From NCBI RefSeq assembly GCF_000015145.1, contig NC_008818.1:990001-1022000 (forward strand): 32,000 nucleotides of DNA. The letters are read 5' to 3'. Shown one piece after another: positions 6,788 through 22,288 of the stretch. Source of the DNA: Hyperthermus butylicus DSM 5456. GTDB lineage: Archaea; Thermoproteota; Thermoprotei_A; Sulfolobales; Pyrodictiaceae. The translations under genes were made by a program, and so were the position numbers. Position 1 is the first letter of the stretch. Each line of letters begins with the position of its first letter. The notes below the pieces were generated by a model. It was given only the letters and a program-made list of their open reading frames with translations. It was not told the DNA's origin and did not search any database.

Positions 6788-7624
6788 GTGGCTAGCTCGC
6801 ATTTATTCTCCGGGGACTTACTGTTGGGTTGGGGATTGCTTGGCCCGGGCATCCATAGCTTTTGCGGCCAGCAACTAGTTGTTGAAGAGCTGTCCAGGGG
6901 CATCTGTAGGTATCGTAGGCCTAGCGGTGCCGTCCAAAAGCTAGTACCATGTGAGGGTCTTCACGTGTATCCGCAGCCACCGGTTTATTATCCGGAACAT
7001 GTAACCAGCTATGTTATGGTCAGGTTTGAGGAGCCGATAGTAGTCGACAAGGGTGCTTCTACCAACTTTTGGGTCCACATAGACTTCGACGTCGTTGTTG
7101 TCGCGGGCTCCGAGGAGGATCCTGCAAGAGTAGTTGATGCGTTCCCGTCGACAGGCAGGGGAAAGTATGCGCTATATGGACCGCCCAACCGTGGACTACT
7201 TGCAAGGTATGTTCGTGCGCAACCGCTCATGGAGCCCGTAACCGAGCAGTGCCGTGGCCTTGCACGCGTCGTGATCGTCAACCAGGGGTTGCAAGCAGTT
7301 GAGGTTACGCGGGTTGTCTTCCCGGCGCTACACGCGCCAGTCTACTTTGATGAACAAGGCGCTGTTTACTATCCTGAGATCCGTGTGGTGGCTACAAGCT
7401 ATTTTTCCAGCCATAGTAAGCGTTTCCGACAAGCCGCCCAGCCGGGGGCTACGGAGGGCGCCGCTGCTTGCAAAACCCAGAAGCATAGTCGGCGTACATG
7501 GGGTAGGGCTTATCCGCTCCCCAAGCTACGTAATGGCTCACGGTCTATAACGGATTCGAGAGGCAACTCAGCATGGTGGGGTCTGGTAAAAAGAGTAGAG
7601 CCAGTCCTAGCCAGGGCACCATAA
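6788..7624 (+). CDS. conserved hypothetical protein (possibly DUF432-like); 3' end uncertain
   Basis: 278-aa ORF with a GTG start. The core 'VMVRFEEPIVVDKGASTNFWVHIDFDVVVV..GKYALYGPPNRG..ARVVIVNQG' looks like a genuine beta-rich protein. The last ~75 aa are R/S/W-rich and unconvincing (see finding). Confidence 0.45.
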   Translation: MASSHLFSGDLLLGWGLLGPGIHSFCGQQLVVEELSRGICRYRRPSGAVQKLVPCEGLHVYPQPPVYYPEHVTSYVMVRFEEPIVVDKGASTNFWVHIDFDVVVVAGSEEDPARVVDAFPSTGRGKYALYGPPNRGLLARYVRAQPLMEPVTEQCRGLARVVIVNQGLQAVEVTRVVFPALHAPVYFDEQGAVYYPEIRVVATSYFSSHSKRFRQAAQPGATEGAAACKTQKHSRRTWGRAYPLPKLRNGSRSITDSRGNSAWWGLVKRVEPVLARAP

Positions 7625-7702: not shown

Positions 7703-9061
7703 CTAGCTACTACATGGCTTGTAGATATAGCCTTGAAGCACTACGCCAATGCTGTAGTCCACAAAGTATGTATTGTCGTCGCCTATGAGTGCTATGCTTG
7801 TAGCTACTACCGGTAGTGGGGGGTCTGTGCGTATGTTGGCGATGCCTGCATCAGTGAGGTATGGGTTCTGGGTGTACCCCATTACTACTAGGATTTTGTC
7901 TGGTGGCGCAGTAATGTTGAACTGTACAAATACTCTGTCGTTTCTCTCATAGTATAGCACTATACCGTTGAGTAGTCGTGCTCGTAAAACTAGGAGGCGG
8001 TAGGGGAGGCTTCGATCCTCCATATTATTGTAGGCGTAGTGTATTGATAGTGTTACATCGTCAATTGTCGTATTTACTTTGAGGATACTGTATTTCTCTG
8101 CTTGGCCTAGCTCTATCCATGTGCCGTTGGGGAATACTAGCCATGCGAGCAGCTTGGACTTGAGAGTATAGTATATTGTCACCACGGCTCCTAGGCCTGG
8201 GATGTACACTATATCGTCTACGAGATAGTATTTGAACCACCAGTATCTGTTGCAAGCGTTGGTGAGGGGTGTAGTGTTTACTCCGAGGCGCTCCAGCATT
8301 GTGAGGGGCTTTGGTGTTGCCCAGCCTGTAGGGTTATTGTATATGAGGCCGCTGGCGCATATGTTGTACTCGTCTCCGTCTATTGTGCCGCTGTTGTAGG
8401 CGTCGTAGTATGCTGCAGCTAGTAGAGTGTTGAGCTTCCCCCCGGGTATGTAGCCCCGGTAGGCTTCTGGATCACTCGTTATATTGTAGACCACTGGGTC
8501 CAGGTACCAACTACAATTTGTCATGTTTGAATATATGGATGTGAGGTTTAGGCAGAGTTGTGGCTCCAAGAGTTCGGTGGCGCGTACGATCCTGCCGCTA
8601 AGACAGAGCCCTGCTTTGGTCGGGTCAATCTCGTAACTGTAAAGCCAAAGAGACTCCCCACGGACAAGTATTACGACCGGCTCATTGCATGGCAGCTCCA
8701 GCAGGGCGGTATTATTCACTACGGGGGCCCTAGCGATAGGCCTGCGGCTTGCTACGCTGTAGGCTATGACCTCAGAGGCCTTGTGGCCCATAGCTATGGG
8801 TTTTATGGTAAGCCTTACTGGGAGCACATTGTTGATGCATTCATCTGAGAGGGGAACTAGCTCCATGCGTGGCGGTACTGCTGCAGCGGCGGCGTGCACG
8901 GCAGCTCTCACGGTAGTCTTGGTAGCGGAGACCACGTATGCAGCTATTAGCGTAAGCGAGAGCGTAGATATGAGCGCGACTATAAGCGCTGATACTACGC
9001 CTCCAACACCCTTCAGCTGCAAGCCTCTATTACACCCAGTAAGGGGGCCTCTTCCAGGCAC
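7703..9061 (-). CDS. secreted glycoprotein with prepilin-like (class III) signal peptide
   Basis: 452-aa ORF. The N-terminus '..RGLQLKG|VGGVVSALIVALISTLSLTLIAAYVV' fits the archaeal [KR]G-cleavage motif followed by ~25 hydrophobic residues. An alternative TTG start at 9022 would give 'MQLKG|V..'. It carries 9 N-x-S/T sequons and 9 Cys, has no other TM segment, and is beta-rich. Confidence 0.6.
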   Translation of the reverse strand: MPGRGPLTGCNRGLQLKGVGGVVSALIVALISTLSLTLIAAYVVSATKTTVRAAVHAAAAAVPPRMELVPLSDECINNVLPVRLTIKPIAMGHKASEVIAYSVASRRPIARAPVVNNTALLELPCNEPVVILVRGESLWLYSYEIDPTKAGLCLSGRIVRATELLEPQLCLNLTSIYSNMTNCSWYLDPVVYNITSDPEAYRGYIPGGKLNTLLAAAYYDAYNSGTIDGDEYNICASGLIYNNPTGWATPKPLTMLERLGVNTTPLTNACNRYWWFKYYLVDDIVYIPGLGAVVTIYYTLKSKLLAWLVFPNGTWIELGQAEKYSILKVNTTIDDVTLSIHYAYNNMEDRSLPYRLLVLRARLLNGIVLYYERNDRVFVQFNITAPPDKILVVMGYTQNPYLTDAGIANIRTDPPLPVVATSIALIGDDNTYFVDYSIGVVLQGYIYKPCSS

Positions 9062-9112: not shown

Positions 9113-9595
9113 CTATTCGTGGCCTAGCTCTATCACGATAACCTTCTCCCTCTCGACAACCCGAAGTCCATAGCCCGAGGCGAGCCCCACGACGTAGCCT
9201 ACTAGGGGGTCTTTGCTACCGCGGAAGATGAGGACGCGGTTATAATCAACGATGCCTAAGCCTAGACGGTCGGTTATGAGGGATATCAGCTCTGAAACGT
9301 CAAGCCCAAGCTCCCTTAGCGCGGCTCCCAGGCGCTCGCCCTCAACCCTAGCCTCCCTGGTTCCGGCCCCGAGGAGGGTGCGGGGCACCGGTACGGCGCC
9401 AAGTCGGGCGAGAGCCTCGAATAACAATGCACGCCTTATGAGGCTGGGTGCGTGGAACCCCCTTTCCTCAGCCTCTGCAGCCGCCTCCACGAGGCTCCTA
9501 ACGTATCCTGATATGGTGACGCCGTAGCGGGTGGCTAGCTCCTGGAGAATCCTTGCATGCTCCTCGTCGAGCATAATGCTTTTACGCCGGGGCAA
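9113..9595 (-). CDS. ribbon-helix-helix (CopG-like) domain protein, paralog B
   Basis: 160-aa ORF. The N-terminal 'KSIMLDEEHARILQELATRYGVTISGYVRSLVE' follows an RHH pattern. It shares 'ALARLGAVPVP' and a C-terminal alpha/beta domain with the upstream gene. Confidence 0.6.
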   Translation of the reverse strand: MPRRKSIMLDEEHARILQELATRYGVTISGYVRSLVEAAAEAEERGFHAPSLIRRALLFEALARLGAVPVPRTLLGAGTREARVEGERLGAALRELGLDVSELISLITDRLGLGIVDYNRVLIFRGSKDPLVGYVVGLASGYGLRVVEREKVIVIELGHE

Positions 9596-9597
9596 GG

Positions 9598-10173
9598 CTA
9601 ACCAGCCGCCTTAAACCTTACAACCACGAGGCCTGGAGACTCATCACCACCATTGACGGCTAGGCCGAAACCCTCTACTACGCCAGAGACAATGGCATGT
9701 ACAAACCTCCTTATACGACTCCCAGATAGTACAGGCGATGCAACAACAATTTTTCCCGATTTACCCTCGTCAACTATGTCCACAGCCATGCCTGGCAGCA
9801 GAGCCCTCAGAACCATCGCCAAAGCGAAATTATCGTCGAGGCCCCTAGCGCGGGTAGATGCAGCAACAAGGCTGGCAAGTCTCGCAACGCTAGAGGTGAA
9901 CTCCTCTACTGCATCATCCTCTGCCCTCTCCAGGACTCGAGCAAGAGCCTCCAATGGCACCGGAGCCATACCCAGCCGTGCCACGTCTGCAAGTACGGCG
10001 CTATCAGATAGCACCGAGGCAACATCATCGCGGCTCCGGAGGATACGGACAGCCTGGCTCAGAATAGTCTCAACTAGCTCTGGAACACTCATACCAGCTC
10101 TCCTAGCAATAGGTGTAAGCTCTTCAACAAGCCGTTCACTCACTGGTATAAGCCTCCTAGACCCCTTCGGCAC
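9598..10173 (-). CDS. ribbon-helix-helix-like domain protein, paralog A
   Basis: 191-aa ORF ending 2 nt before the next gene. 'RLIPVSERLVEELTPIARRAGMSVPELVETILSQAV' follows an RHH pattern, and 'DVARLGMAPVP' aligns with paralog B. Confidence 0.55.
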   Translation of the reverse strand: MPKGSRRLIPVSERLVEELTPIARRAGMSVPELVETILSQAVRILRSRDDVASVLSDSAVLADVARLGMAPVPLEALARVLERAEDDAVEEFTSSVARLASLVAASTRARGLDDNFALAMVLRALLPGMAVDIVDEGKSGKIVVASPVLSGSRIRRFVHAIVSGVVEGFGLAVNGGDESPGLVVVRFKAAG

Positions 10174-10367
10174 TCACAACCCACCCTAGCCGCTCAACCG
10201 TCACGCCCATACACTACTCAGACCCGGTCCATGATAAGAGGTTCCCGCTCCAACACCCATTTTACACAACACTGCATGCAAGAGTAGGCACACCCGCCTT
10301 AAACCCCCACCAACCCGCTAACACCACCGGCCGGAAAGGTAAAGCCCAGAAAGAGGTGTAGCTCGGC

Positions 10368-13300
10368 ATGAGTAGGCTAGCCCTAAACATACTCACAATA
10401 CTCCTCATAACACTCCCAGTCATAGCTCCAATGCTACCAGTAGCAAAGGCACAGACGGTATACGCTGAGATAATAAACTGCACCAACTGTGTAAGTGTGA
10501 TTAACAACACCTATGCAGTGGTTACAATCGGCAGCGAGATAACGTTCCTAATACATGACGACGACGGCCTAACCTACAACTGGGAGAACATCACAGCCAA
10601 CATAACAGTCAACGGTGTACTTAACACTGTAAACGTAGGCTTCTACGGGATCTACGGCGACTACGTGGGTAAGCTAGTAGTCGAGCAGGTTGGCGGCCTC
10701 ATCAAGGTAAGGTACTACTACTATGACAACGCAACTGACAGCTTCGTCGACATGGGTTACCTCAACGGTACAATCACCGCTACCAACCAGACAATAGTCA
10801 TAGAGTACAAGGGTGCCAAGATAACCCTAGTGTACCAGCAACCACTAGCAACCTACACCCTAGAGATCTACGGCCGCCTACACGAAGGCAAGTACTGGCT
10901 ACCAAGGCTAGGCGATGACGGCGTAAACAACATAACAGCACTATACAACGCCCTTGGCGAGTGGAGGATAAAGGCCGACCAGCCAGTATTCACGCCCGGC
11001 AACAACTACACTGTAACACTCTACGCTAGGCTTGTAGGTGAGACAACACCACTATTAACACAGGACGTAGTATTCACGGCTAGTGACGAGTACACACTAG
11101 TACCAGCCAACGCCACCGAGGCAGAAAAGATCAAGAGCTTCCTACTAAATCTAAGCAGCGCAGTCAACCCATGGTACATTGAGGGTATAGACTTCGCCAA
11201 CCCAACAATGATGGGCGACATGCTAAAGCTAAAGGCCGAGATACAGGGCTTCGGAGAGACAGCCGAGGTAGATGCAGTAATATTCGTCAGCATAGCTAAG
11301 ATAGAAATAGACAGTGCTGGCTTCAACAACCCAGAGGTAACCATAACAGTATATGACGCTGACACCAACCTAGACACAACCGCTGCAGAGGCAACACCAT
11401 TCACATTCGACATACTAGTGAATGGCGTACCAGTAATGCAGCTACAGCTACAAGAGACTGGTGCTAACACTGGCGTATTCACAGCAACAACAAACATGTT
11501 CGACCTATACAGCTTCGGTGTCATCAGTGAGACCGACAACGTGATAGACTACAACTTCACAGAGGTACGTGTAGACGATCCATCAGCAAAAGTGATATGC
11601 TTCAGAGGTGGCAGCTTCACAGTAACCTACTACGCAGCAGAATTCAGCGTCAAGGAGGAGCAGCTAACGCTAAGGAACATCATACAGTGCTGTCCACCAC
11701 TAAAGCTAACACTGCAGATAATAGATGAGGATCTCAACCTGCCAAACCAGGAGATAGTAGCAATAGCAACACTCAATGCTGGCGACTCGCTAACCAACGT
11801 TGTTGCCTACTACTACTACAACGACCAGATAACGACTGTACCAGCACTGAACTTCTCAATGTACATGGCTGACGAGGAGGGCAACCTCTACGACCTAACA
11901 GTACGCGAGCAATTCACCATCTACTTCATCAAGGTAGCGCCTGGCGTAGTTGAAGCTAGCATAGATCTATCAAAGATCGACTGGCAGGCTACAAACGCTG
12001 CAGCTTCAGCAGCTGGCCACCAGCTAACAAAGATAGTGATAGTATACAGTGACAGGTTCAACCCGAACCTAACAATAGTCAACAAGCAGGCAGAGGTAAC
12101 ACTACAGAACGTAACCATACAGGTTGACCGTGACACCCTACCAATATCATTCAGGATCGTAAGCAGCAACAACCCACCAAGGATAGGCCTTGGTAGCTGT
12201 CCAGCATGTGCAGCCTGGGAGGTTGACACCTGGTCTGATGTATCAGCCCAGACAGTACACATAACAATCTACGACGATGGGCACAACGAGGACTGCTGTA
12301 GTGTTGACGTGATAACACCAGCAGAGATAGAGCTAACACTCTACAAGGTAGTTGACGGCCAGACAGTAGTATTCGGCAGCGGCACTGGCAGCCTAAGCAT
12401 CGACCTATACGCCATAAACGCCACTGGCCACTGGGTAGACTATGGCACATGCTACATCGAGGTAAGCGACCTGGTAGAGACTGGCTTCAACACTGGTGTA
12501 TTCACCGGCACCCTAAGCATCTACTCAGAGATCGACGTAGACCTTGACGGCACACCTGATATAACAATAGCAGGCTGTCCATCACTATGGCTGCAGGGTG
12601 CAACACTAGAGATTAAGTACACAAGCCCGGCAGTAGGCTTCGCAGTACAGAAGATAACATTCGCAACCTACACAGCCAAGCTACAGCTAAACACACACGT
12701 AGTACACTATGGCGACGAGCTAGTGATAACAGTCGAGGACCCAGATGCTAACCTTGACAGCACAATCAACGAGGCTATCAAGGCAACACTAAGCTTCTAC
12801 TGCCCACTAACAAGGACAACTGAGGAGTACACAGTCTACCTGAAAGAGACCGGCACCAACACTGGCGTGTTCGTAGGCAGCATCACCATCGACTCCAGGC
12901 TAGCAGGTCCATGCGTAGACCTCTACTGTGCAGAGCTAACAGTAACCTACGTGGACAGAACACCATTCGACGAGAACACACTGAACTACGCCGAGCAGCT
13001 ATTAAAGCAGAACCTATCAACATATGGTGTCAACGGCTTAATGATATTCAGCGAGTGTGACTGTAACAAGGTACTAATAACAGATACGATAGTAGAGCAG
13101 CCGGTCAAGGGCAGTGTGGAGGTCTACTACAAGTTCCCAGCAGGGCTAGAACAGCTAGCACCATGGAACAAGGTTTGGCAGAAGGTAACCAACGATGTAG
13201 TACCAGCCTATGAGGGCATTGAGCTCAACATAACAGTCTACGACCCTGACAGGAACAGACTCTACGATGTGGTAGACAACATACCGTACAGCAAGATAGC

Positions 13301-14474
13301 AGTAACAATTGAGGGCCTCAACGCGCCACCACTAATACTAGAGCAGCTAGTTGGCAGCGGCTACCTAACAGAGACTGGCGCCAACACCGGCACGTTCAGC
13401 ACTGTCATAACGCTAGGTGACCTGCTGGCAGGCTTCCAGAGGCTTGGCTACAACGTAGACCTAACAAGCGTAATTGGCAAGAAGATAGCGTTCATCTACT
13501 ATGATGACCAGACAGCATGCCAGGCAGCAATATGTGGCAGCTACACTGGCGGCTCCACCAGCGTATGGATCAAACCAGTAGACATTGAGGGCGGCGTCAC
13601 TGTAATCAATGCTGTAACTGGTAAGCCGAACCCAGACAACATCTACAACTGTGGCTGTACAATAGGCAGTTGTCCATCAGCAACTGGCGATATAATAGAC
13701 ATCATCGTCAACGACGTATCGCTGCTAAAGTACGTGCAGGCTGGTGGTATACGGCTGGTAGGCAACCTAACACTAAGGCTGCTCTACAACAATACTGAGC
13801 AGCCACTAACATACGGCGGTCTCGAGACACTAAGCTACATCGGCTATGAGAACCTAACACTGCCAGGCAGCAATGTAGTCATACCAGTACCAAAGTTCGC
13901 TGCAGAGAACGTACTGATCTACTGCAGCGTACCACTGGCAACAGCCGGCCAGCCATACATAGTAGCACCAGTAGGCAGCAGGGTCAAAATAATCTACCAC
14001 GACCCAGCAATAGAGGCTGGTACTGCTAAGGACGTAGAAGTAACAATTGGCATTGGCGTACCAGGCCTACTACCGACACCAGAACAGTCAGTACAGTTCG
14101 TTGAGCAGCAGCTAGAGGTTAGGGTATTCAATGGCACAGCATTCGTAGAGACGACAACAGTCAAGCGCGGCCAGCCAGTATCGATCTACGTGCCGCTCAA
14201 CTACGATGCACTAACGGTGAGGACATACACTGGTGCCAACGTATTCACAGTGCTACTAGTAATCAAGGATGCAGAGGGCAAGGTAGCACTATTCACGTAC
14301 ACCTACATTGACGTCAGCAAGATGGAGAACGAGGTAAGCTTCGGCATACCAGCAGAGTTCACCAAGCTACTACCAGCGGGCACATACACTGTAGAGCTAT
14401 ACGCTGTAACCAGCCTAGACGCACTAATGCCACTATCACCGGTACTATCATTCCAGCTAACAATAACCGAGTAA
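10368..14474 (+). CDS. large secreted surface glycoprotein, candidate S-layer lattice protein (SlaA-like architecture)
   Basis: 1368-aa ORF. GAGGTG lies 9 nt upstream of the ATG. It has a Sec signal 'MSRLALNILTILLITLPVIAPMLPVAKA|QT' and no TM anchor. It is beta-rich, with ~22 N-x-S/T sequons and four DxDxN...ETGxNTGxF modules. Codon bias is extremely A-ending. Confidence 0.85.
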   Translation: MSRLALNILTILLITLPVIAPMLPVAKAQTVYAEIINCTNCVSVINNTYAVVTIGSEITFLIHDDDGLTYNWENITANITVNGVLNTVNVGFYGIYGDYVGKLVVEQVGGLIKVRYYYYDNATDSFVDMGYLNGTITATNQTIVIEYKGAKITLVYQQPLATYTLEIYGRLHEGKYWLPRLGDDGVNNITALYNALGEWRIKADQPVFTPGNNYTVTLYARLVGETTPLLTQDVVFTASDEYTLVPANATEAEKIKSFLLNLSSAVNPWYIEGIDFANPTMMGDMLKLKAEIQGFGETAEVDAVIFVSIAKIEIDSAGFNNPEVTITVYDADTNLDTTAAEATPFTFDILVNGVPVMQLQLQETGANTGVFTATTNMFDLYSFGVISETDNVIDYNFTEVRVDDPSAKVICFRGGSFTVTYYAAEFSVKEEQLTLRNIIQCCPPLKLTLQIIDEDLNLPNQEIVAIATLNAGDSLTNVVAYYYYNDQITTVPALNFSMYMADEEGNLYDLTVREQFTIYFIKVAPGVVEASIDLSKIDWQATNAAASAAGHQLTKIVIVYSDRFNPNLTIVNKQAEVTLQNVTIQVDRDTLPISFRIVSSNNPPRIGLGSCPACAAWEVDTWSDVSAQTVHITIYDDGHNEDCCSVDVITPAEIELTLYKVVDGQTVVFGSGTGSLSIDLYAINATGHWVDYGTCYIEVSDLVETGFNTGVFTGTLSIYSEIDVDLDGTPDITIAGCPSLWLQGATLEIKYTSPAVGFAVQKITFATYTAKLQLNTHVVHYGDELVITVEDPDANLDSTINEAIKATLSFYCPLTRTTEEYTVYLKETGTNTGVFVGSITIDSRLAGPCVDLYCAELTVTYVDRTPFDENTLNYAEQLLKQNLSTYGVNGLMIFSECDCNKVLITDTIVEQPVKGSVEVYYKFPAGLEQLAPWNKVWQKVTNDVVPAYEGIELNITVYDPDRNRLYDVVDNIPYSKIAVTIEGLNAPPLILEQLVGSGYLTETGANTGTFSTVITLGDLLAGFQRLGYNVDLTSVIGKKIAFIYYDDQTACQAAICGSYTGGSTSVWIKPVDIEGGVTVINAVTGKPNPDNIYNCGCTIGSCPSATGDIIDIIVNDVSLLKYVQAGGIRLVGNLTLRLLYNNTEQPLTYGGLETLSYIGYENLTLPGSNVVIPVPKFAAENVLIYCSVPLATAGQPYIVAPVGSRVKIIYHDPAIEAGTAKDVEVTIGIGVPGLLPTPEQSVQFVEQQLEVRVFNGTAFVETTTVKRGQPVSIYVPLNYDALTVRTYTGANVFTVLLVIKDAEGKVALFTYTYIDVSKMENEVSFGIPAEFTKLLPAGTYTVELYAVTSLDALMPLSPVLSFQLTITE
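11349..11480 (+). repeat. protein-level module 1: 'VYDADTNLD' ... 'ETGANTGVF'
   Basis: In-frame motif pair separated by 35 codons. Confidence 0.6.
12267..12503 (+). repeat. protein-level module 2: 'IYDDGHNED' ... 'ETGFNTGVF'
   Basis: In-frame motif pair separated by 70 codons, so this module carries an insertion. Confidence 0.55.
12732..12872 (+). repeat. protein-level module 3: 'VEDPDANLD' ... 'ETGTNTGVF'
   Basis: In-frame motif pair separated by 38 codons. Confidence 0.6.
13236..13397 (+). repeat. protein-level module 4: 'VYDPDRN' ... 'ETGANTGTF'
   Basis: In-frame motif pair separated by 45 codons. Confidence 0.6.
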
Positions 14475-14511
14475 CCAGCGAGTTTGAAGGGGCAAACCTA
14501 TGACCCAACGC

Positions 14512-14517
14512 TTTTTT
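14512..14517 (+). terminator. oligo-T tract after the SlaA-like gene
   Basis: T6 lies 38 nt after the stop, with a second T5 at 14544-14548. Confidence 0.4.
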
Positions 14518-14577
14518 ACACATCCAGTTTACGGGCTTCATGGTTTTTACTATGCAACTATGTGTTTGCCTCAATGC

Positions 14578-14584
14578 TTAAATA
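14578..14584 (+). promoter_or_regulatory. TATA-like box (TTAAATA) upstream of the stalk-protein gene
   Basis: 'gcTTAAATAgc' lies ~40 nt before ATG 14623 and ~70 nt before ATG 14656. It implies the SlaB-like gene has its own promoter. Confidence 0.4.
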
Positions 14585-14655
14585 GCTACCCGTGTAGGAT
14601 TCGTGTAATGGTGTAAGAACATATGGCTTGGAGGATTAGGGGGAAGGTGGTAGCA

Positions 14656-16002
14656 ATGAAGACAAGAATGATACTGGCAAGCCTTGCAGTGCTAATCTTC
14701 GCATTCTCGACAATCGCTATGGCTGCTTCAAACTATGCTAGCTATGGCCCAGTAGAATTCTACACCGACAAAGCCAGCTACCTGCCTGGCGAGACTGTAA
14801 GGTTCACCATAGTGATACATGATAGGACTGACTTCCTCGACAGGATAGACATATACATTCTCCGCAACGGCCAGGTAGAGTACCTATGGCACTACCCGGC
14901 AGATAACGGCACCGGCGTAGTCTTCTACCTACAAAACGTTAACGGGAATAGCGTAATTACGTTCAGCAAGGCATTCAGCGAGAGTGGAAGTTATGAAGCA
15001 AGAATAGCCATTCCAAGTCTTAACGTGGCTGCAAATGCTCTAGCAATAACATTCACTGTGGGCCCGCGATATGAGATAGCTGGCATAGTCGTAGATGAGG
15101 AGGGTACACCGGTAGCTGGGGCCACTGTAACAGTACTAGAGACGGGCGACCAGGTCACAACGAATAGCACTGGCGGATTTAGCGTTGGCGTCTCCTCACC
15201 AGGGAACTACACGCTATACGTAAAGGCTAACGACTTCCTACCAACTACAGTAACTGTCACTGTTGAGGATGTTGGCACAACAAACGCTGGCACAATAGCT
15301 ATTGAGAGTGTAGCACACGCCATAACAACCATAAGACAAGAGCTAGAGGATGTAAAGGCCGTCCTCACACAGCTAGAAGCCAACCTAACAAGCCTAACCG
15401 AGGACTACCAGGCAGCAATAGAGGACATTTACAACAGCATAGCATCTCTATCCGATAGGCTCACAGCAGTAGAGAGTGCTGCTAGCCAGCTACAGAGCAG
15501 CCTCAGCAGCCTAAATGCAACGGTTAGCCAGCTACAGGAGATGCTAGGTGAGCTACAGAGCCAGCTAAGTAGCCTTGCACAGCAGCTAGGAGAGCTATCC
15601 AAGGGCCTAAGCGTGCTGGCACAAGACCTTAATGCAAAGATCGAGAAGCTAAACAGCGAGATAACTAAGATAAAGGAAGCCTACGCAACTAAGGACGAGC
15701 TAAACACAGCTATAAACAATGTCAACTCGAGAATAGACCAGGAGAAGGCATCTCTCGAGCAGCAGATATCGGCGCTCAACGAGGAGATAAACAAGCTCAA
15801 GCAGAGGCTCGACCAGCTAGAGTCAGCAACAATACAGCAGCTATCAAACAACATACAGCAGCTAACCAGCGAGCTACAGTCGCTAAGCGATAAGATAGAT
15901 AGCGCCTCCCGGACTGCACTCATAGCAGTCATACTAGCAGTGATAGGCATAGTTGTAGCTGTAGTAGCAACAGTACTCGTATACCGCAAGATAACAGCCT
16001 AA
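14656..16002 (+). CDS. membrane-anchored coiled-coil stalk protein (SlaB-like architecture)
   Basis: ATG 14656 follows GGTGG by 7 nt (the ORF opens at 14623). It has a Sec signal 'MKTRMILASLAVLIFAFSTIAMA|AS' and a beta-sandwich region. A CarboxypepD_reg-like domain follows ('IAGIVVDEEGTPVAGATVTVLETGDQVTTNSTGGFSV..GNYTLYV'), then a ~195-aa heptad coiled coil and a C-terminal TM 'TALIAVILAVIGIVVAVVATVLVY'+RK. Confidence 0.85.
   Translation: MKTRMILASLAVLIFAFSTIAMAASNYASYGPVEFYTDKASYLPGETVRFTIVIHDRTDFLDRIDIYILRNGQVEYLWHYPADNGTGVVFYLQNVNGNSVITFSKAFSESGSYEARIAIPSLNVAANALAITFTVGPRYEIAGIVVDEEGTPVAGATVTVLETGDQVTTNSTGGFSVGVSSPGNYTLYVKANDFLPTTVTVTVEDVGTTNAGTIAIESVAHAITTIRQELEDVKAVLTQLEANLTSLTEDYQAAIEDIYNSIASLSDRLTAVESAASQLQSSLSSLNATVSQLQEMLGELQSQLSSLAQQLGELSKGLSVLAQDLNAKIEKLNSEITKIKEAYATKDELNTAINNVNSRIDQEKASLEQQISALNEEINKLKQRLDQLESATIQQLSNNIQQLTSELQSLSDKIDSASRTALIAVILAVIGIVVAVVATVLVYRKITA
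15322..15906 (+). other. continuous heptad-repeat (coiled-coil) coding segment
   Basis: Hydrophobic residues (L/I/V/A) recur at strict 3-4-3-4 spacing for more than 110 residues counted by hand (LEDVKAVLTQLEANLTSL...KLNSEITKI). The pattern continues to ...LQSLSDKIDSA. Confidence 0.75.
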
Positions 16003-16037: not shown

Positions 16038-16043
16038 TTTTTT
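16038..16043 (+). terminator. oligo-T tract after the stalk-protein gene
   Basis: T6 lies 36 nt after the stop. Confidence 0.4.
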
Positions 16044-16331: not shown

Positions 16332-19300
16332 ATGTTGTCACGTAAGGCTTTATTATATCGTTTTGTATCAGCGTTTACAATAATGATATTCATTCTACCC
16401 TATATACCGATGGCTGTAGCAGAAGGACAGACAGATAGCGGAGTTAACGTGACAAGCGTGGGACCATACATACATCCTGCGTTTAAGACTAAGGAGTACT
16501 GGGAGTATGGTGGCTTATCTGGCAAGGTTTTCCGGGAGATTCTAAGCCTAGCTGAGGAGTTTGCTAATCATAGAGGGATAGTTGTTGAGAAGCCTAGTGA
16601 GCCCTATGCAGCTGCTATACTACTAGTCGAGCCACATGTAGATATGAGCTTCTATCGGAGCCTTGCAAAGGCTATTGTAATTACAGGTATCTACCCAACA
16701 CATGCCTATACTATTGTGACTGGCTGGGTTACGCCGAGCAGTATTGAGAAGCTCTCAAAGATGGCCGGCATCGTGGCAATACTGCCTGACGTGACACTTG
16801 ACAACCTCCTATCGAGTGCAAGGAATGATGAGCTACTCAGAGAGCTGCAGATGATGGGCCGGGTAGATCCTGACGAGTTAATAGCTTCGAAGCCGGTGCT
16901 TGAGAAGCCGAGAGAGCTACCAGCAGCTCCAGCTGGTCCCGTGGATCTCCTATCAATACCAGGAATGTACCACTATACTGTCAATATTACTCGTGCAATA
17001 GAGGTCTGGAGCAAGTACGGTATTATGGGTCAGAATACGACATTGGCAATCATAGACACTGGTGTAGACTACGCTAGCCCAGGCCTAGGCCTCGACGCTA
17101 TTGCCAGGGACGAGTATGGTATACCGCTAATCTTTGATGCTGATAGCCTAGGTCTTGTATTAACACCAGTGCCAGCAATACCTGTAAACGAGACACACGT
17201 ATACGTCGATGTTAGCGAGCTCTACTTCTTCTACCCGCCATACAACGTGTTTAAGGATAATGTCAGCTTCGCCCGCTTTGGAGATGTATGGCTATACTGG
17301 AACCTCCCAGAGTACTGGAGGGTACCACTGGACGTCTACGCCGGCTTTAGCACCTCTGGTGTTGTGCCAAGGTTTGGTATTGCAGTAAGGATAATCAGTA
17401 CGCCCGTAGGTACTGTAGCCTTTGGCGCGCCAGTGCTAGTCTACGACAGTGACGGTGATGGCTACTATGACACCGTGCGTGTTGACATGACCACCACTTA
17501 CTACTACTTCTACCAAGCAGTAAACCAGAGTGGAGCACTAGCAAGTCTCTACCTATACCAGCCACCCTATAGTGGGCCCGACTATGACTTTAGCGACGAA
17601 CCAGCAATAAGGTATGGCAATGAGATAGCGGCACTGGACCTGGATGGCGATGGTGTATACGACTTTAGTGTTGGTACACTAGCAGGCTACATCTATGATG
17701 CCTTTGGTATTGTGCTACTGGAAGAAAATAATGTTCTAAAGCAAATGCTAGCTGGCCTAGAGCCCGGCTATGGCGTCAGCGTGTTCAACGTGTGGGACAT
17801 GTGGAGCTTCGACTACCTAGGCTATGTGTGGCCAGGCATGGATGTATGGGCTGGTAGGTACGTTGTGCTAGAATACGACTTCCACAGCCATGGCACCTTC
17901 TGTGCCACCACTGCTGCTGGTAGGCCGGCATGGGGCTACACAGGGTACGGTGAGTACAGTGGATGGAGCCTAATAGTGGGCCAGGCGCCTGACACCAAGA
18001 TTGCTGCAGCATCCGCGCTCTCCATGGGCAACGTGTTTGCCGCTGTATACTTCTTCAGCGGGTTCGACGTGGTTAACCCATATGGTGTCGAAAACGGGTT
18101 CTTCCACTACTACGTCCCGGTGCCGGGCAGCGTCAATCCATGGATAGCATTTGAGGGTGGCATACTTGTCTGGAACTACACGGGCAAGCCTAGGGTTGAT
18201 GCTACAAGCAACAGCTGGGGCGCCAGTGGATGGGCGCTATGGGGCTGGGCTAGCGGCATGGACCCGATAAGTGTTGTATTCGACTATACCAGCCTAGTTA
18301 GCAAGACACCGCACTTCGTCGCGGCTGGCAACGGCGGTCCAGGCTGGGGCACCGTTACAAGCCCAGGAGCCTCTGCCATGGCTATAACAGTGGGTGCAGC
18401 CACAGAGTTCACCTATAGGCCGTTCTACGGCTATCTGCCGGGTGGCAACAAGGAGATAGTGTCGTGGAGCAACCGCGGCCCAGCCGAGACGGGTATCGCC
18501 AAGCCAGACATAGCAGCAATAGGCAGTTTCGCATGGGCAATGGGTAGGCCATGGGACGCATTGGCGTGGGGTGCACTTGACGGCTTCTTCGCCTTCGACC
18601 TCTTCGGAGGCACAAGCCAGGCAACACCGATGACAGCTGGTGTAGCCTCACTAGTCATTACAGCCTACAAGCAGGCAACAGGCAAGGACTTCATGCCTGC
18701 ACCTCTACTAAAGACAATACTGATGAACACCGCGCACGACACCGGGTTTGACCCGTTCAGCCAGGGTGCAGGCTTCGTAAACGCCCTTGCAGCGGTTGAA
18801 AAGGCGCTAGCGCTAGCTCATGGCAGACCAACACTGGTCTACAGTACGTCGGTGCCAGACTTCATACTCTCACAGCAAGCGCCAAACTACGAGACAATAG
18901 CGCATGGCGGCATAGAGGAGGGCGGCTGGGCTGAACCAAAGCTAGTACTAGCCGGTACGAGCTACGCTAAGGCAGAGCTAACTGTGAAGGGTGTTGGCAG
19001 GTATAAAGTATATGCTATGGAGCTTGTGAAGACGCTAGAAAAGCCGCTAGTATACATGCTCGGTGTTAGTGTGCCAACAATAACAGTTGATGGAATCAAG
19101 ATAGTATGGCGGAGCGGGAGCAAGATAGCAATCAACCTCACCGGCCTAGACTACGTTGACATGGTTCCACTGGCGTACATCGATCCATCGAGGCTACTAA
19201 GCTACGACCTCGTAGAAATATCCATGGTTTATCCATACCAGTACTTCGATAGTGCCGGCAGGTACGGCACATGGAGAGGCGGCATCTACTACAATGGCAT

Positions 19301-20594
19301 AGAACTATGGTACTGGATCGACCTCAACCGTAACGGCATAATGGAGCTCAACGAGACTGCTAGAATACAGTACGACCTGCGCGGCGCAAACGCATTCCAC
19401 ATACAGGTAGCAAAGCTAGCTGAGCAGCTTAGCGAGATAGAGCGCCTAGTAGCAATGCATACAGGTATGGATGTCTCAGCAGCACCAAAGCAGCTGGTAC
19501 TAGTGTACAGGGCGTACTACAATTACTGGAGCTACGAGGTCTACAGCGGTAAGCCAGTAGTAATATACGCTGATGTCACCATCAAGGGGTACGAGTGGAA
19601 GTCATGGAACAACATTAGGGTCTACCCATCAGTATTCACTGCCAGCGGTACCCGCACAGTCAAAATATTCGCTGTAATGCCGCGCGGCCCAGGCATATAT
19701 ACAGGCTACATCGTTGTAGAAAACACGCTCACCGGCGAGAGAATACTGGTACCAACAACAATCATAAAGATACTAACAATGAACGACGCCTACCGCTCAT
19801 ACACTATAAGCCGTGCATACTACTATGGCGACCGTAACGACTTCTACCGTAACGATGTGCTGCGTGGTGCGTTCGACTGGACCTGGAGGTATGAGAGTGG
19901 CGACTGGAGAACATACCTGGTAGAGGTAAAGGACCCGAAGATAAAGTATTTGGTGCTAGAGCTAAAGTGGAGTGGCGGCACCAAGAACTATATGAGCAAC
20001 CTTGACGTAATGGTATTCGGCCCATACACCTACAAGCTGGTAGACATTGAGAACGATACAGCACCGTACAAGGTATACAGCATGAATGTCAACGGGCTAC
20101 AGCTAGGTGGAGAGCTAACAGAGGACTTTAGAATGTTCTGGGACGACCCAGCGCCAGGCACTAGCAGGATAATAGTGCCGATAAGCGGTCCCGGCCTCTA
20201 CAGGATAGTCGTTAGGAACATCGAGTATAGTGGCGTACAGCAAGAGGAGTCGTTCATGCTGAAGATAGCACCTGGCAGCCTGAGCATATGGCCACGTGTG
20301 GTGAAGCTGTCAGATGGTTCTAGGGCTTACGTGAGGATACTAGCAAAGATACAGGCAACCATCGATACTTCGACGGTTGCAATAGTGCCGCTGGACGAGA
20401 TGTTCGGCGGGTACTACGAGTGGTACTATCCATACAACAACTTCACAGTTAGCGTTGAGAATATTATAGGTAGGAGCTACCGCTACGCCAGCTACATAAT
20501 AAGCCTAGTATCAATCTATGCACCGGTAGGCCTTGGAGAAGGCACCTACATTCTGCCACTAGCGCTGATAACTGGTACGCCTGTAACAGCGTAG
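16332..20594 (+). CDS. giant secreted subtilisin-family (S8) serine protease, pyrolysin-like
   Basis: 1420-aa ORF with GGAGGG 6 nt upstream of the ATG. Signal peptide 'FVSAFTIMIFILPYIPMAVA|EG'. Catalytic motifs: Asp 'LAIIDTGVDY' (D242), His 'HSHGTFCATTAAG' (H520), oxyanion 'TSNSWG', Ser 'GGTSQATPMTAGVASL' (S762). There is a 278-aa insert between Asp and His and a ~660-aa C-terminal extension. Confidence 0.9.
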   Translation: MLSRKALLYRFVSAFTIMIFILPYIPMAVAEGQTDSGVNVTSVGPYIHPAFKTKEYWEYGGLSGKVFREILSLAEEFANHRGIVVEKPSEPYAAAILLVEPHVDMSFYRSLAKAIVITGIYPTHAYTIVTGWVTPSSIEKLSKMAGIVAILPDVTLDNLLSSARNDELLRELQMMGRVDPDELIASKPVLEKPRELPAAPAGPVDLLSIPGMYHYTVNITRAIEVWSKYGIMGQNTTLAIIDTGVDYASPGLGLDAIARDEYGIPLIFDADSLGLVLTPVPAIPVNETHVYVDVSELYFFYPPYNVFKDNVSFARFGDVWLYWNLPEYWRVPLDVYAGFSTSGVVPRFGIAVRIISTPVGTVAFGAPVLVYDSDGDGYYDTVRVDMTTTYYYFYQAVNQSGALASLYLYQPPYSGPDYDFSDEPAIRYGNEIAALDLDGDGVYDFSVGTLAGYIYDAFGIVLLEENNVLKQMLAGLEPGYGVSVFNVWDMWSFDYLGYVWPGMDVWAGRYVVLEYDFHSHGTFCATTAAGRPAWGYTGYGEYSGWSLIVGQAPDTKIAAASALSMGNVFAAVYFFSGFDVVNPYGVENGFFHYYVPVPGSVNPWIAFEGGILVWNYTGKPRVDATSNSWGASGWALWGWASGMDPISVVFDYTSLVSKTPHFVAAGNGGPGWGTVTSPGASAMAITVGAATEFTYRPFYGYLPGGNKEIVSWSNRGPAETGIAKPDIAAIGSFAWAMGRPWDALAWGALDGFFAFDLFGGTSQATPMTAGVASLVITAYKQATGKDFMPAPLLKTILMNTAHDTGFDPFSQGAGFVNALAAVEKALALAHGRPTLVYSTSVPDFILSQQAPNYETIAHGGIEEGGWAEPKLVLAGTSYAKAELTVKGVGRYKVYAMELVKTLEKPLVYMLGVSVPTITVDGIKIVWRSGSKIAINLTGLDYVDMVPLAYIDPSRLLSYDLVEISMVYPYQYFDSAGRYGTWRGGIYYNGIELWYWIDLNRNGIMELNETARIQYDLRGANAFHIQVAKLAEQLSEIERLVAMHTGMDVSAAPKQLVLVYRAYYNYWSYEVYSGKPVVIYADVTIKGYEWKSWNNIRVYPSVFTASGTRTVKIFAVMPRGPGIYTGYIVVENTLTGERILVPTTIIKILTMNDAYRSYTISRAYYYGDRNDFYRNDVLRGAFDWTWRYESGDWRTYLVEVKDPKIKYLVLELKWSGGTKNYMSNLDVMVFGPYTYKLVDIENDTAPYKVYSMNVNGLQLGGELTEDFRMFWDDPAPGTSRIIVPISGPGLYRIVVRNIEYSGVQQEESFMLKIAPGSLSIWPRVVKLSDGSRAYVRILAKIQATIDTSTVAIVPLDEMFGGYYEWYYPYNNFTVSVENIIGRSYRYASYIISLVSIYAPVGLGEGTYILPLALITGTPVTA

Positions 20595-20774: not shown

Positions 20775-20857
20775 TTTTCATAGTTCTCTTGTTTGTTTTC
20801 TCCATCTTATTTATTTATGCAGACTCTGGGATACTACTTAGTGGGAGGTGGAAAGTT

Positions 20858-22288
20858 ATGGCGCTCCCTAGGCCGCCGGTTGGCGAGGGCGTGGAGGTTC
20901 TCTTCAAGCCCAAGGGTGTAGCGGTTATTGGTGCCTCTAGGAAGCCTGGTAAAGTAGGCTACATGGTTCTATACAATCTTAAGAATAGCTACGAGGGTCC
21001 AATATACCCTGTAAACCCGAACGCGGACGAGATACTGGGGCTCAAAGCCTATCCGACAATAATGGATGTACCTGACCCTGTAGATCTTGCAGTAGTGACT
21101 GTGCCGGCAAAAATGGTGCCAGATGTAGTAGACCAGGCTGGAAGGAGAGGTGTTAGGGCGGTTATAGTGATTAGTGCTGGCTTCAGGGAGGTTGGCGGCG
21201 AGGGGGTCGAGCTTGAGAAGCGGCTGCTCGAGGTTGTGAGAAAGCATGGTATCCGAATGCTGGGCCCCAACTGTCTAGGAGTATACTCTCCATCAACCGG
21301 CATTAACGCGACATTTCTCGACCCGGAGAAGCAGGGTCTACCAGGTAAGGGCCCCATAGCATTCATCAGCCAGAGTGGTGCTCTTGGCGCAGCCTTGCTA
21401 GACTGGCTTGACGCTAACCAGTTTGGCATAAGCAAGTTCATAAGTATTGGCAACAAGGCTGACATTGATGAGGCCGACCTGCTAGCCTATCTAAGAAAGG
21501 ACCCGGAAACCAAGAGCATTGCAATGTATATCGAGGGCGTCGCGCCCGGCGAGGGTGGGAGATTCCGCCGCGCTCTAGAAGAGACAACACATGAAAAGCC
21601 AGTGGTCATACTAAAGTCTGGCCGCACCGCTGCTGGTGCACGTGCCGCTTCAAGCCATACTGGCAGCCTTGCAGGTAGCTATCAGCTATACGAGACTATC
21701 TTCAAGCAAACCGGAGTAATACCAGCCTACGACACGGCACAGCTATTCGAGATGGCGTTAGCGCTAGCGCTACAGCCGCCAATGCTGGGTGATCGTGTGG
21801 CAATAATAACGATGGGTGGGGGCAGCGGTGTAATGGCCTCCGATAACCTCGCCGAGAAGGGGCTGAAGGTTGTGGAGCTTAGCCCAGAAACGCAGGCTAA
21901 GCTACGCAAGGTTCTACTGCCGATTGCTAGTCCGAGAAACCCCGTGGATGTAACAGGCTCTGCTACTGATGAGCACTTCCTAGAGTCAATTAGAATCGTT
22001 GTTGAGAGCGGCGAGGTTGACGGCATATTCCTCATACCATACCTAAACCTTGCATCCATAACCCCGGAGCTTCCACGCAAAATAGCTGCACTCGTGAAGG
22101 AGATACAGCAGAAGTACCGAATACCATTCGTAGCCTCGGTAACCGCTGGCAAGAAGACATGGGCTCTAGCAAAGATTATGGAGAAAGAGGCTGGAATACC
22201 GGTATATAGTAACGAGGCTAGCGCAGCCAGAGCCATGTGGGCACTCCGCCAGTACGGCAAGTGGCTACAGAAGATAGGTGTAGCCTAG
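20858..22288 (+). CDS. acdA: acetyl-CoA synthetase (ADP-forming), alpha subunit / CoA-binding succinyl-CoA-synthetase-like
   Basis: Appears collinear with my recollection of Pyrococcus ACS alpha: 'LFKPKGVAVIGASRKPGKVGY', 'GPIYPVNP', 'DLAVVTVPAK', 'ISAGFREVG', 'RMLGPNCLG', 'FISQSGALG', 'SIGNKADID', 'ASSHTGSLAG' (the phosphohistidine loop). ATG 20858 follows GGAGGTGG. The ORF track's TTG at 20789 adds a non-homologous leader. Confidence 0.85.
   Translation: MALPRPPVGEGVEVLFKPKGVAVIGASRKPGKVGYMVLYNLKNSYEGPIYPVNPNADEILGLKAYPTIMDVPDPVDLAVVTVPAKMVPDVVDQAGRRGVRAVIVISAGFREVGGEGVELEKRLLEVVRKHGIRMLGPNCLGVYSPSTGINATFLDPEKQGLPGKGPIAFISQSGALGAALLDWLDANQFGISKFISIGNKADIDEADLLAYLRKDPETKSIAMYIEGVAPGEGGRFRRALEETTHEKPVVILKSGRTAAGARAASSHTGSLAGSYQLYETIFKQTGVIPAYDTAQLFEMALALALQPPMLGDRVAIITMGGGSGVMASDNLAEKGLKVVELSPETQAKLRKVLLPIASPRNPVDVTGSATDEHFLESIRIVVESGEVDGIFLIPYLNLASITPELPRKIAALVKEIQQKYRIPFVASVTAGKKTWALAKIMEKEAGIPVYSNEASAARAMWALRQYGKWLQKIGVA

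Follow-up and report, generated by a model that had tools for sequence, protein, structure and literature searches.

Which genes encode the surface layer (S-layer) of Hyperthermus butylicus, and which of the known archaeal S-layers do their products resemble? The question is raised by two adjacent genes in a 32,000-nucleotide (nt) stretch of the H. butylicus DSM 5456 genome (contig NC_008818.1, positions 990,001 to 1,022,000, forward strand), which was analysed as a whole and is called here the window; coordinates are numbered from its first base. A previous reading of the letters alone (the sequence-only reading) had proposed that this pair is a two-component S-layer locus following the logic of SlaA (outer lattice) and SlaB (membrane stalk). 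SlaB homology, a predicted fold similar to that of the Nitrosopumilus maritimus S-layer protein (NmSLP), synteny and a conserved TATA box support the proposal, and we consider it very probable that the two genes encode the H. butylicus S-layer, with an NmSLP-like lattice protein and a SlaB stalk. The genes are the following (aa, amino acids):

10368..14474, + strand: gene of the slaA-type lattice protein, 1368 aa; UniProt A2BLH8 / WP_011822157.1
14656..16002, + strand: slaB gene, membrane-anchored coiled-coil stalk, 448 aa; UniProt A2BLH9 / ABM80840.1

The open reading frame (ORF) scan of the window returned the two as neighbours on the same strand, the second one as an ORF spanning 14623..16002. 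This ORF encodes 459 aa from the ATG at 14623 and 448 aa from the second in-frame ATG at 14656. The 448-aa start is preferred because a Shine-Dalgarno (SD)-like GAAGGTG (14643-14649, 6 nt 5' of ATG 14656), the alignment of three orthologues and the start of A2BLH9 all point there; the upstream in-frame ATG is probably not used. With this start, the adjacent pair has the coordinates that the sequence-only reading had given. The first 399 residues of A2BLH8 and A2BLH9 coincide exactly with the large and the small window protein, respectively, and the source data of Extended Data Fig. 5 in PMC11153153 tabulate these two entries as SlaA and SlaB. In the homologue search the large protein was 100% identical to a 'hypothetical protein' of H. 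butylicus, so the lineage guessed from the letters, Desulfurococcales/Pyrodictiaceae-like, was right. Both genes also show a marked A-over-T skew on the coding strand (+0.14 to +0.31, window 10001..16000), compared to about 0 ± 0.1 across the larger part of the window; it probably reflects the Thr/Asn/Asp/Glu-rich composition of the two proteins.

The small protein is organised in three parts, preceded by an N-terminal signal peptide evident from hydropathy:

14728..15288, + strand: two N-terminal beta domains of SlaB, aa 25-135 and a CarboxypepD_reg-like domain at aa 141-211
15298..15915, + strand: coiled-coil stalk, aa 215-420, about 205 aa, proline-free, period 3.5
15916..15999, + strand: C-terminal transmembrane helix (hydropathy) and short basic tail, ...VLVYRKITA

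Signal, beta domains, coiled coil and transmembrane helix were thus all correctly read from the sequence, and the beta-sandwich could be assigned to CarboxypepD_reg (PF13620, Pfam, E 1e-13). The part of that description that did not stand is the 'uninterrupted' heptad repeat: along the roughly 205 aa, four or more shifts of register occur (near aa 250, 305, 330-351 and 385).

Sequence comparisons identify the small protein as a true SlaB homologue. Its best match among PDB sequences (phmmer) is 8QOX_B, from the SlaA/SlaB assembly of Sulfolobus acidocaldarius, and a profile of three syntenic orthologues matches the same chain with E 3.2e-14 in three stretches: the beta domains (SlaB residues 60-211), the coiled coil and the transmembrane tail. 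This tail aligns with the Sulfolobales ...IVLVYRKIS and is conserved in eight orthologues. The top NCBIfam match is NF040788 'S-layer protein SlaB' (E 5.5e-17), with 61.8 bits against an equivalog cut-off of 700 bits, which is not reached; since the model is specific to Metallosphaera/Sulfolobales, the low score points to divergence and not to non-homology. Against reference sequences taken from the supplement of von Kügelgen et al. 2024 (Nature), hhalign gave a probability of 98.1% (E 6.6e-14) for four Sulfolobales SlaB, 99.6% over the full length (E 6e-25) for the Ignisphaera SlaB, and 24% only for thaumarchaeal SlaB. Matches to SMC, Rad50 and the heptad repeat 1 (HR1) of viral spikes were discarded as compositional, being confined to the helical part. 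Unlike these coiled-coil matches, the SlaB match also covers the beta domains and the transmembrane tail, and this is why it was taken as homology. The homologue search with the beta-domain part of SlaB returned solely an unrelated bacterial CarboxypepD_reg protein.

The large protein has the attributes of a secreted lattice protein. Its sole hydrophobic segment is N-terminal, and a C-terminal anchor is absent (hydropathy):

10368..10451, + strand: Sec-type signal peptide of the large protein, aa 1-28, with the putative cleavage site between ...PVAKA and QTVY
13665..14471, + strand: two C-terminal beta-sandwich domains, candidate stalk-facing end, aa 1100-1368

The protein contains 22 N-x-S/T sequons, compared to 11.5 ± 3.1 in shuffled sequences (z 3.4, p about 0.001), and the enrichment is found in six out of six orthologues (z 3.4-8.4). 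It also has 22 cysteines, 14 of which are invariant in the orthologue alignment. The net charge is about -85, with 5.2% K+R and 11.3% D+E, and the value published for H. butylicus SlaA is -95.8 (PMC11153153, Supplementary Table 1). Counted per 100 aa, the negative charge peaks at aa 230-530 and 630-730 and is weakest at the C-terminus. Coherently with a sequence-only description as a secreted, anchor-less, beta-rich protein with about 22 sequons, the AlphaFold2 model (model 1, aa 30-1229, six-sequence alignment) is almost entirely beta and forms an array of immunoglobulin (Ig)-like domains. Its mean predicted local distance difference test (pLDDT) value is 74.5 and its predicted TM-score (pTM) is 0.45. 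In the separate model of aa 1100-1368 (pLDDT 76.7, last domain near 90), two beta-sandwiches were predicted, for which only generic Ig/MG/FnIII-like structural matches were found; by analogy with NmSLP and SlaA, these C-terminal domains could bind the stalk.

When the aa 30-1229 model was compared to the PDB with Foldseek, the top four entries were all N. maritimus S-layer protein (8C8M, 8C8O, 8C8R and 8C8L; E 7.8e-27 to 2.9e-20, query TM-score (TMq) 0.32). They were followed by complement C5, bacterial alpha-2-macroglobulins and CD109 (E about 1e-15 to 1e-13, TM-score about 0.1, root-mean-square deviation (rmsd) 50-70 Å), by csg of Haloferax volcanii (7PTP, E 1.7e-11, rank 34) and by Sulfolobales SlaA (7ZCX, E 2.8e-10, rank 46, TM-score about 0.15-0.17). 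The NmSLP E-value is therefore ahead of generic Ig arrays by about 12 orders of magnitude and of SlaA 7ZCX by 17. On the basis of this model, the large protein is an Ig-like array whose closest solved structure is NmSLP, a hexagonal archaeal lattice protein. In structure it would thus resemble NmSLP and not Sulfolobus SlaA, in agreement with the hexagonal H. butylicus lattice seen by electron microscopy (EM; review PMC5744192), unlike the p3 lattice of Sulfolobus. A confident match to an enzyme or to an unrelated adhesin family, which would have spoken against a lattice role, was looked for, and the lattice protein came up as the best fold match instead.

No Pfam family was found on the large protein by the Pfam scan, and the precomputed Pfam field is likewise empty. 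Some weak matches were regarded as chance or as generic beta-sandwich similarity and set aside: the turret domain of Sulfolobus turreted icosahedral virus (STIV; Pfam E 0.009, below cut-off), picornavirus VP2 (PDB sequences, E 0.05), and matches of the large-protein profile to ErpP, bacterial microcompartment (BMC) shell proteins and protocadherin (E 0.09-1.5).

The large protein had also been described as built from a different repeat module, DxDxN...ETGxNTGxF. The motif scan found four exact ETGxNTGxF copies (at aa 363, 704, 827 and 1002), three of which have DxDxN 33-43 aa ahead; the copy at aa 704 is preceded instead by YDDGHNED (aa 635). The four modules are:

11355..11480, + strand: module 1, DADTN...ETGANTGVF, aa 330-371
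12270..12503, + strand: module 2, YDDGHNEDCC...ETGFNTGVF, aa 635-712
12738..12872, + strand: module 3, DPDANLD...ETGTNTGVF, aa 791-835
13242..13397, + strand: module 4, DPDRN...ETGANTGTF, aa 959-1010

In module 1, the residues D330, D332, N334, E363, G365, N367, T368 and F371 are invariant in six orthologues, and in module 3 the same holds in the orthologues for D791-P-D-A-N-L-D797. The ETG end of module 2 (aa 699-712) and module 3 lie inside aa 699-864, the region that matches the Kustd1514 family (NF052345, E 2e-12) and that also takes most of the distant matches of the profile search. Module 3 gave the best local match to the 'ITDLWLNIDPTDEDSW' motif of NmSLP, which is not significant (hhalign, E 0.13), and module 4 aligns with residues 293-360 of the Ignisphaera 'SlaA' E0SPF1 (hhalign probability 48%, E 1.8e-4, 61 columns).

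The profile search, run exhaustively over 1.84 billion representatives with aa 30-1229 of the large-protein alignment as query, yielded 206 matches. About 14 of them are full-length relatives from Pyrofollis japonicus and from uncultured Pyrodictiaceae, Desulfurococcales and Thermoproteota, all annotated as 'hypothetical'. The remaining matches are many proteins of 1100-1300 aa and a few giants of 3000-7800 aa, with 4-33 module copies; the carriers include Bathyarchaeota and a 3140-aa bacterial 'Ig-like domain-containing protein'. The counterpart in the Ignisphaera 'SlaA' reads VVDQDLNLNP…FQETGSNTNVF, and similar motifs occur in thaumarchaeal S-layer proteins (DSDINDTD, ITDLWLNIDPTDEDSW, ETEPNTGIF/ETQSNSGIF). 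Thus, the four ETGxNTGxF copies do exist, but they are not specific: the module is not private to an H. butylicus-type family, because it is also present in the Ignisphaera 'SlaA', the Kustd1514 family, Bathyarchaeota and bacteria. It is a widespread Ig-like domain subtype of surface proteins and no signature of a new family. A probable role of the module is to bind cations (Ca2+) where domains or subunits meet; this is suggested by its acidic, cadherin-like pattern together with the EGTA sensitivity reported for the integrity of the N. maritimus lattice, which is hexagonal (PMC11153153).

Conservation of the pair in relatives had been named beforehand as a test of the S-layer assignment. A large gene with a SlaB-like gene next downstream in the same orientation was found in nine out of nine loci examined across Pyrodictiaceae and Desulfurococcales (L001, L002/L003, L004, which ends at a contig edge, L005, L006, from the complete Pyrofollis genome, and L007-L009). 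The SlaB-like neighbours are 432-475 aa long, each with a signal peptide and a transmembrane tail, and those at the distant loci match the hidden Markov model (HMM) with E 1e-72 to 9e-41. The pairing is kept also where the large protein (about 1100 aa, from metagenome-assembled genomes (MAGs) of Pyrodictiaceae and Desulfurococcales) is related at the module level only. At one of these loci, the protein P0017 of a Desulfurococcales MAG (L008 6001..9354, about 1117 aa) has a weak precomputed match to PF28202 'SlaA-like'; it could provide a transitive sequence link from the large proteins to SlaA.

The non-coding DNA around the two genes contains several candidate signals:

10298..10304, + strand: candidate TATA-like CTTAAAC upstream of slaA, inside the conserved CACACCCNCCTTAWACCCC block
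10353-10358, + strand: SD-like GAGGTG ahead of slaA
14512..14548, + strand: oligo-T tracts after slaA (T6 14512-14517, T5 14544-14548), candidate archaeal terminators
14572..14585, + strand: promoter-like box CAATGCTTAAATAG before slaB, with TTAAATA at 14578-14584
16038..16043, + strand: T6 tract, candidate terminator of the unit, 36 nt past the slaB stop codon

The block 5' of slaA shows CTTAAAC/CTTATAC in the alignment of six loci. Between the genes, the oligo-T tracts and the TATA box noticed in the earlier reading are present, and TTAAATA is invariant in five loci where the intergenic DNA is otherwise about 49% identical. This is an unusually strong non-coding conservation and makes the CAATGCTTAAATAG box a strong candidate for an archaeal promoter. 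T-tracts are found at the equivalent place, ahead of TTAAATA, in five out of five aligned loci. The idea that the two genes are transcribed independently as well as jointly is therefore supported, and a promoter internal to the unit, in front of slaB, combined with partial termination after slaA would explain the arrangement.

Several points weigh against the assignment of the pair to the S-layer. With a pTM of 0.45, the inter-domain arrangement of the large-protein model, and hence the whole-chain TM-score, is uncertain, and Ig-like arrays are found also in adhesins and alpha-2-macroglobulins, the latter with E about 1e-15. Neither phmmer (reporting limit for SlaA against PDB sequences E<=1) nor the six-sequence HMMER profile (E<=10) returned a significant PDB-sequence match, SlaA (7ZCX) and NmSLP (8C8x) included. 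In the hhalign comparison with the first ~400 aa of four Sulfolobales SlaA, the signal peptide alone was aligned (probability 1.8%), and with the first ~400 aa of four thaumarchaeal S-layer proteins a 30-column motif only (E 0.13). The large protein is therefore not alignable to Sulfolobus SlaA by any of these methods, as the sequence-only reading had anticipated by eye. An N-to-C charge gradient like that of NmSLP is not apparent, and the module is carried also by giant bacterial proteins that are probably not lattice-forming. Furthermore, the published SlaA/SlaB designation is itself bioinformatic, and the literature search found no experimental work linking the A2BLH8/A2BLH9 genes to the H. 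butylicus envelope. Finally, the analysis covered the 32-kb window, and another, more abundant S-layer candidate could be encoded elsewhere in the genome.

Three other explanations were weighed. The pair could form a minor surface structure, such as an adhesin or a matrix glycoprotein on a coiled-coil stalk, with the main S-layer gene located elsewhere. The occurrence of the module in adhesin-looking giants (7180 and 7799 aa, and the 3140-aa bacterial protein mentioned above) is in line with this, and so is the case of N. maritimus, where the lattice protein far outnumbers the SlaB homologue (PMC11153153), so that a SlaB-like neighbour alone is no proof of stoichiometric lattice anchoring. We find this explanation quite improbable, since the top fold matches are a lattice protein, about 12 orders of magnitude over generic Ig arrays, the partner is a true SlaB homologue, and the one-to-one pairing is kept despite the divergence of the large protein, as expected of an essential envelope pair; in addition, size, acidity, sequons and the missing anchor suit lattice proteins. 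In a different explanation, the large protein would be an ordinary orthologue of the Sulfolobales SlaA, with a sequence eroded past recognition. Gene order, size, anchor-less secretion and the SlaB partner are as in Sulfolobales, Foldseek does reach 7ZCX (E 2.8e-10), P0017 has its weak 'SlaA-like' match, and the protein is called SlaA in the published tables. Even so, phmmer, the six-sequence profile and hhalign found no sequence similarity, the precomputed Pfam match of P0017 is absent from the large protein itself, 7ZCX ranks 46th with a TM-score (about 0.15-0.17) no better than that of unrelated Ig arrays and an E-value 17 orders of magnitude behind NmSLP, and the H. butylicus lattice is hexagonal and not p3. 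An eroded SlaA orthologue thus appears unlikely to us.

The Foldseek matches to complement C5, bacterial alpha-2-macroglobulins and CD109 suggest a further alternative, in which the large protein would be a protease trap of the alpha-2-macroglobulin/complement type, or some other MG-domain protein, with a functional tie to the 1420-aa subtilase encoded downstream. Sub-threshold Pfam MG2 matches in relatives and the secreted Peptidase_S8 gene located directly downstream go in this direction. The large protein, however, lacks a thioester motif (neither C[GA]EQ nor any other CxEQ occurs) and an A2M Pfam domain, and at a TM-score of about 0.1 and an rmsd of 50-70 Å the matches indicate a shared domain type only, S-layer structures being far better. 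The missing thioester motif and the low TM-score led us to reject an alpha-2-macroglobulin identity. A functional link of the S-layer pair to the subtilase was rejected as well, because the subtilase is not syntenic (it is not at this position in L001, L002 and L006-L009), and overall we give the protease trap hardly any credence.

The NmSLP-like lattice protein and its SlaB stalk can be compared with several known systems. With NmSLP, the large protein shares secretion without an anchor, strong acidity with few K/R, and a layout of tandem Ig-like domains; NmSLP is N-glycosylated, the H. butylicus protein is rich in sequons, and NmSLP is by far its best fold match. The lattice is hexagonal in both organisms, and similar acidic D-x-D-x-N-x-D and E-T-x-x-N-S/T-G-x-F motifs are found in thaumarchaeal S-layer proteins. 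However, there is no significant sequence similarity, the H. butylicus protein is shorter (1368 vs 1734 aa) and lacks the clear N-to-C charge gradient, the H. butylicus SlaB is only weakly matched by thaumarchaeal SlaB (24%) and its coiled coil is much longer, and a peptide-fermenting hyperthermophile offers no obvious equivalent of the ammonium-concentrating role that has been proposed for NmSLP. With the Sulfolobales SlaA/SlaB (Saci_2355/Saci_2354; 7ZCX, 8QP0, 8QOX; Gambelli et al. 2024, PMC10903991), the pair shares the slaA-slaB order on one strand, similar sizes, the division of labour between outer lattice and membrane stalk and, for SlaB, the CarboxypepD_reg-like and other beta domains, the coiled coil, the transmembrane helix and the VLVYRKI tail. 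The match in gene order, sizes and domain logic seen in the sequence-only reading is thus borne out. Conversely, the sequence of the lattice protein shows no recognisable relation to that of the Sulfolobales SlaA and its fold match appears generic, the lattice is p3 there and hexagonal in H. butylicus, and an acidophile is compared to a neutrophilic marine hyperthermophile.

Among the Desulfurococcales entries of PMC11153153 Supplementary Table 1, Ignisphaera aggregans has E0SPF1/E0SPF2, adjacent by accession numbers, with a SlaB homologous over the full length and a large protein carrying a DxDLNLxP...ETGSNTxVF module; the large proteins are alike at the module level only (probability 48%; first ~400 aa compared). 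Kustd1514 of anammox bacteria (NF052345; van Teeseling et al., PMC5088730) is also a large glycosylated S-layer protein with the shared Ig-like module. It is bacterial, and the H. butylicus protein scores 45.3 bits (aa 699-864) against a family cut-off of 1400 bits, so the domain type is shared and the large protein is no member of the family. Tetrabrachion of Staphylothermus marinus is, like the H. butylicus pair, a Desulfurococcales S-layer with a long coiled-coil stalk. It differs in that a single polypeptide supplies both lattice and stalk, the coiled coil is right-handed and tetrameric, and the lattice is p4; a 1420-aa subtilase gene does lie beside the H. butylicus slaB, but it is missing from this position in the relatives examined.

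Upstream of slaA, two small genes are transcribed divergently from it:

9113..9595 and 9598..10173, - strand: two small paralogous genes, 160 and 191 aa

Orthologues of both adjoin the S-layer pair in L002, L004, L006 (Pyrofollis), L007 and L008. No Pfam or NCBIfam family covers the two proteins. Their N-termini gave sub-threshold and consistent matches to ribbon-helix-helix (RHH) proteins (Arc repressor, E 0.054), and RHH_1 matches were obtained in three out of six members of the set (best E 1.7e-4, sub-threshold). The two genes may therefore encode dedicated regulators of the S-layer genes.

Next to them, on the - strand, lies the gene of a 452-aa protein (7703..9061) for which no Pfam or NCBIfam family was found. 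The protein carries a transmembrane helix at its N-terminus and several N-x-S/T sequons, and over its N-terminal ~150-200 residues it shares homology with proteins of 479-681 aa located beside the pair in L001, L004 and L006 (BLASTP E 3e-16 to 3e-14). It may be a further envelope component, for which Saci_1846, the third S-layer-associated protein of S. acidocaldarius, is offered as a comparison (10.64898/2026.08.21.746120). The metabolic genes and the envelope gene cluster are separated by the gene of a DUF432 protein (6788..7624, + strand, Pfam E 4e-34). Directly 3' of slaB, the window encodes a 1420-aa secreted Peptidase_S8 subtilase (16332..20594, + strand, Pfam E 1e-24). This recalls the tetrabrachion stalk of Staphylothermus marinus, which binds STABLE, a subtilisin-like protease. 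The subtilase is absent from the position after slaB in the six relatives given above, and in L001, L002 and Pyrofollis slaB is directly followed by the coenzyme A (CoA)-ligase gene found in the window at 20789..22288; for this reason the subtilase looks like a lineage-specific insertion.

From the observed gene structures, SlaB homology, Ig-array fold with its nearest structural relative, synteny and promoter-box conservation, we infer a model of lattice formation and stoichiometry, glycosylation, cation binding, stalk trimerisation and transcription. The 1368-aa product would be exported through Sec, N-glycosylated and probably stabilised by disulfides, and its chain of about ten Ig-like/beta-sandwich domains would build an extracellular hexagonal lattice with NmSLP architecture. 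Assembly would probably take place with bound cations, in which the four domains carrying the DxDxN...ETGxNTGxF module could be involved. The C-terminal helix of SlaB would sit in the membrane, and its coiled coil, probably a trimer as in Sulfolobus, would form a stalk of roughly 30 nm (205 residues × 0.15 nm). The two N-terminal beta domains of SlaB would contact the lattice and hold the canopy above the membrane, enclosing a pseudo-periplasm. The two genes would probably be cotranscribed from the promoter 5' of slaA with a partial stop at the oligo-T tracts, and the second conserved promoter (TTAAATA) would drive slaB alone.

How much of this is new? The SlaA/SlaB reading is not, since von Kügelgen et al. 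2024 (Nature 630:230; PMC11153153) already list 'Hyperthermus butylicus SlaA WP_011822157.1 (-95.8)' and 'SlaB ABM80840.1 (-23.3)' in Supplementary Table 1, under the heading 'Thermoproteota (order Desulfurococcales)'. The novelty that the sequence-only reading implied is accordingly not borne out. A 2017 review knew of no SlaA homologue outside Sulfolobales and of the H. butylicus lattice by EM only (PMC5744192). A 2026 preprint of the same group as the 2024 work uses HHpred comparisons to argue that the S-layer proteins of Thermoproteota are evolutionarily linked (10.64898/2026.08.21.746120), and a common origin of two-component S-layers has been voiced in both (PMC11153153; 10.64898/2026.08.21.746120). 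In the main texts of the papers we found no accessions or Hbut locus tags tied to the S-layer. The RHH-like gene pair and the conserved internal slaB promoter are possibly new, no description of them having been found. As the assignment is already in a supplementary publication, the discovery value is small. What is added here is independent support from fold, SlaB homology, synteny over nine loci and promoter conservation, and a lattice protein whose predicted structure is NmSLP-like, in keeping with the hexagonal lattice.

In conclusion, the pair is very probably an ordinary two-component S-layer locus of an archaeon, if an under-annotated one. Images of the H. butylicus lattice date from 1990, and no experimental tie to a gene was found; both proteins are still 'hypothetical' in the databases, the published assignment having not been propagated, and a correct functional label would be useful for annotating Pyrodictiaceae and Desulfurococcales genomes. 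More tentatively, and with considerable doubt, the locus could join an NmSLP-type hexagonal canopy to a Sulfolobales-type SlaB stalk, with Pyrodictiaceae as a 'missing link' and the RHH-like pair as a dedicated S-layer regulator. If this were true, one ancestral SlaA/SlaB pair would stand behind the two-component S-layers of Nitrososphaerota, Desulfurococcales and Sulfolobales.

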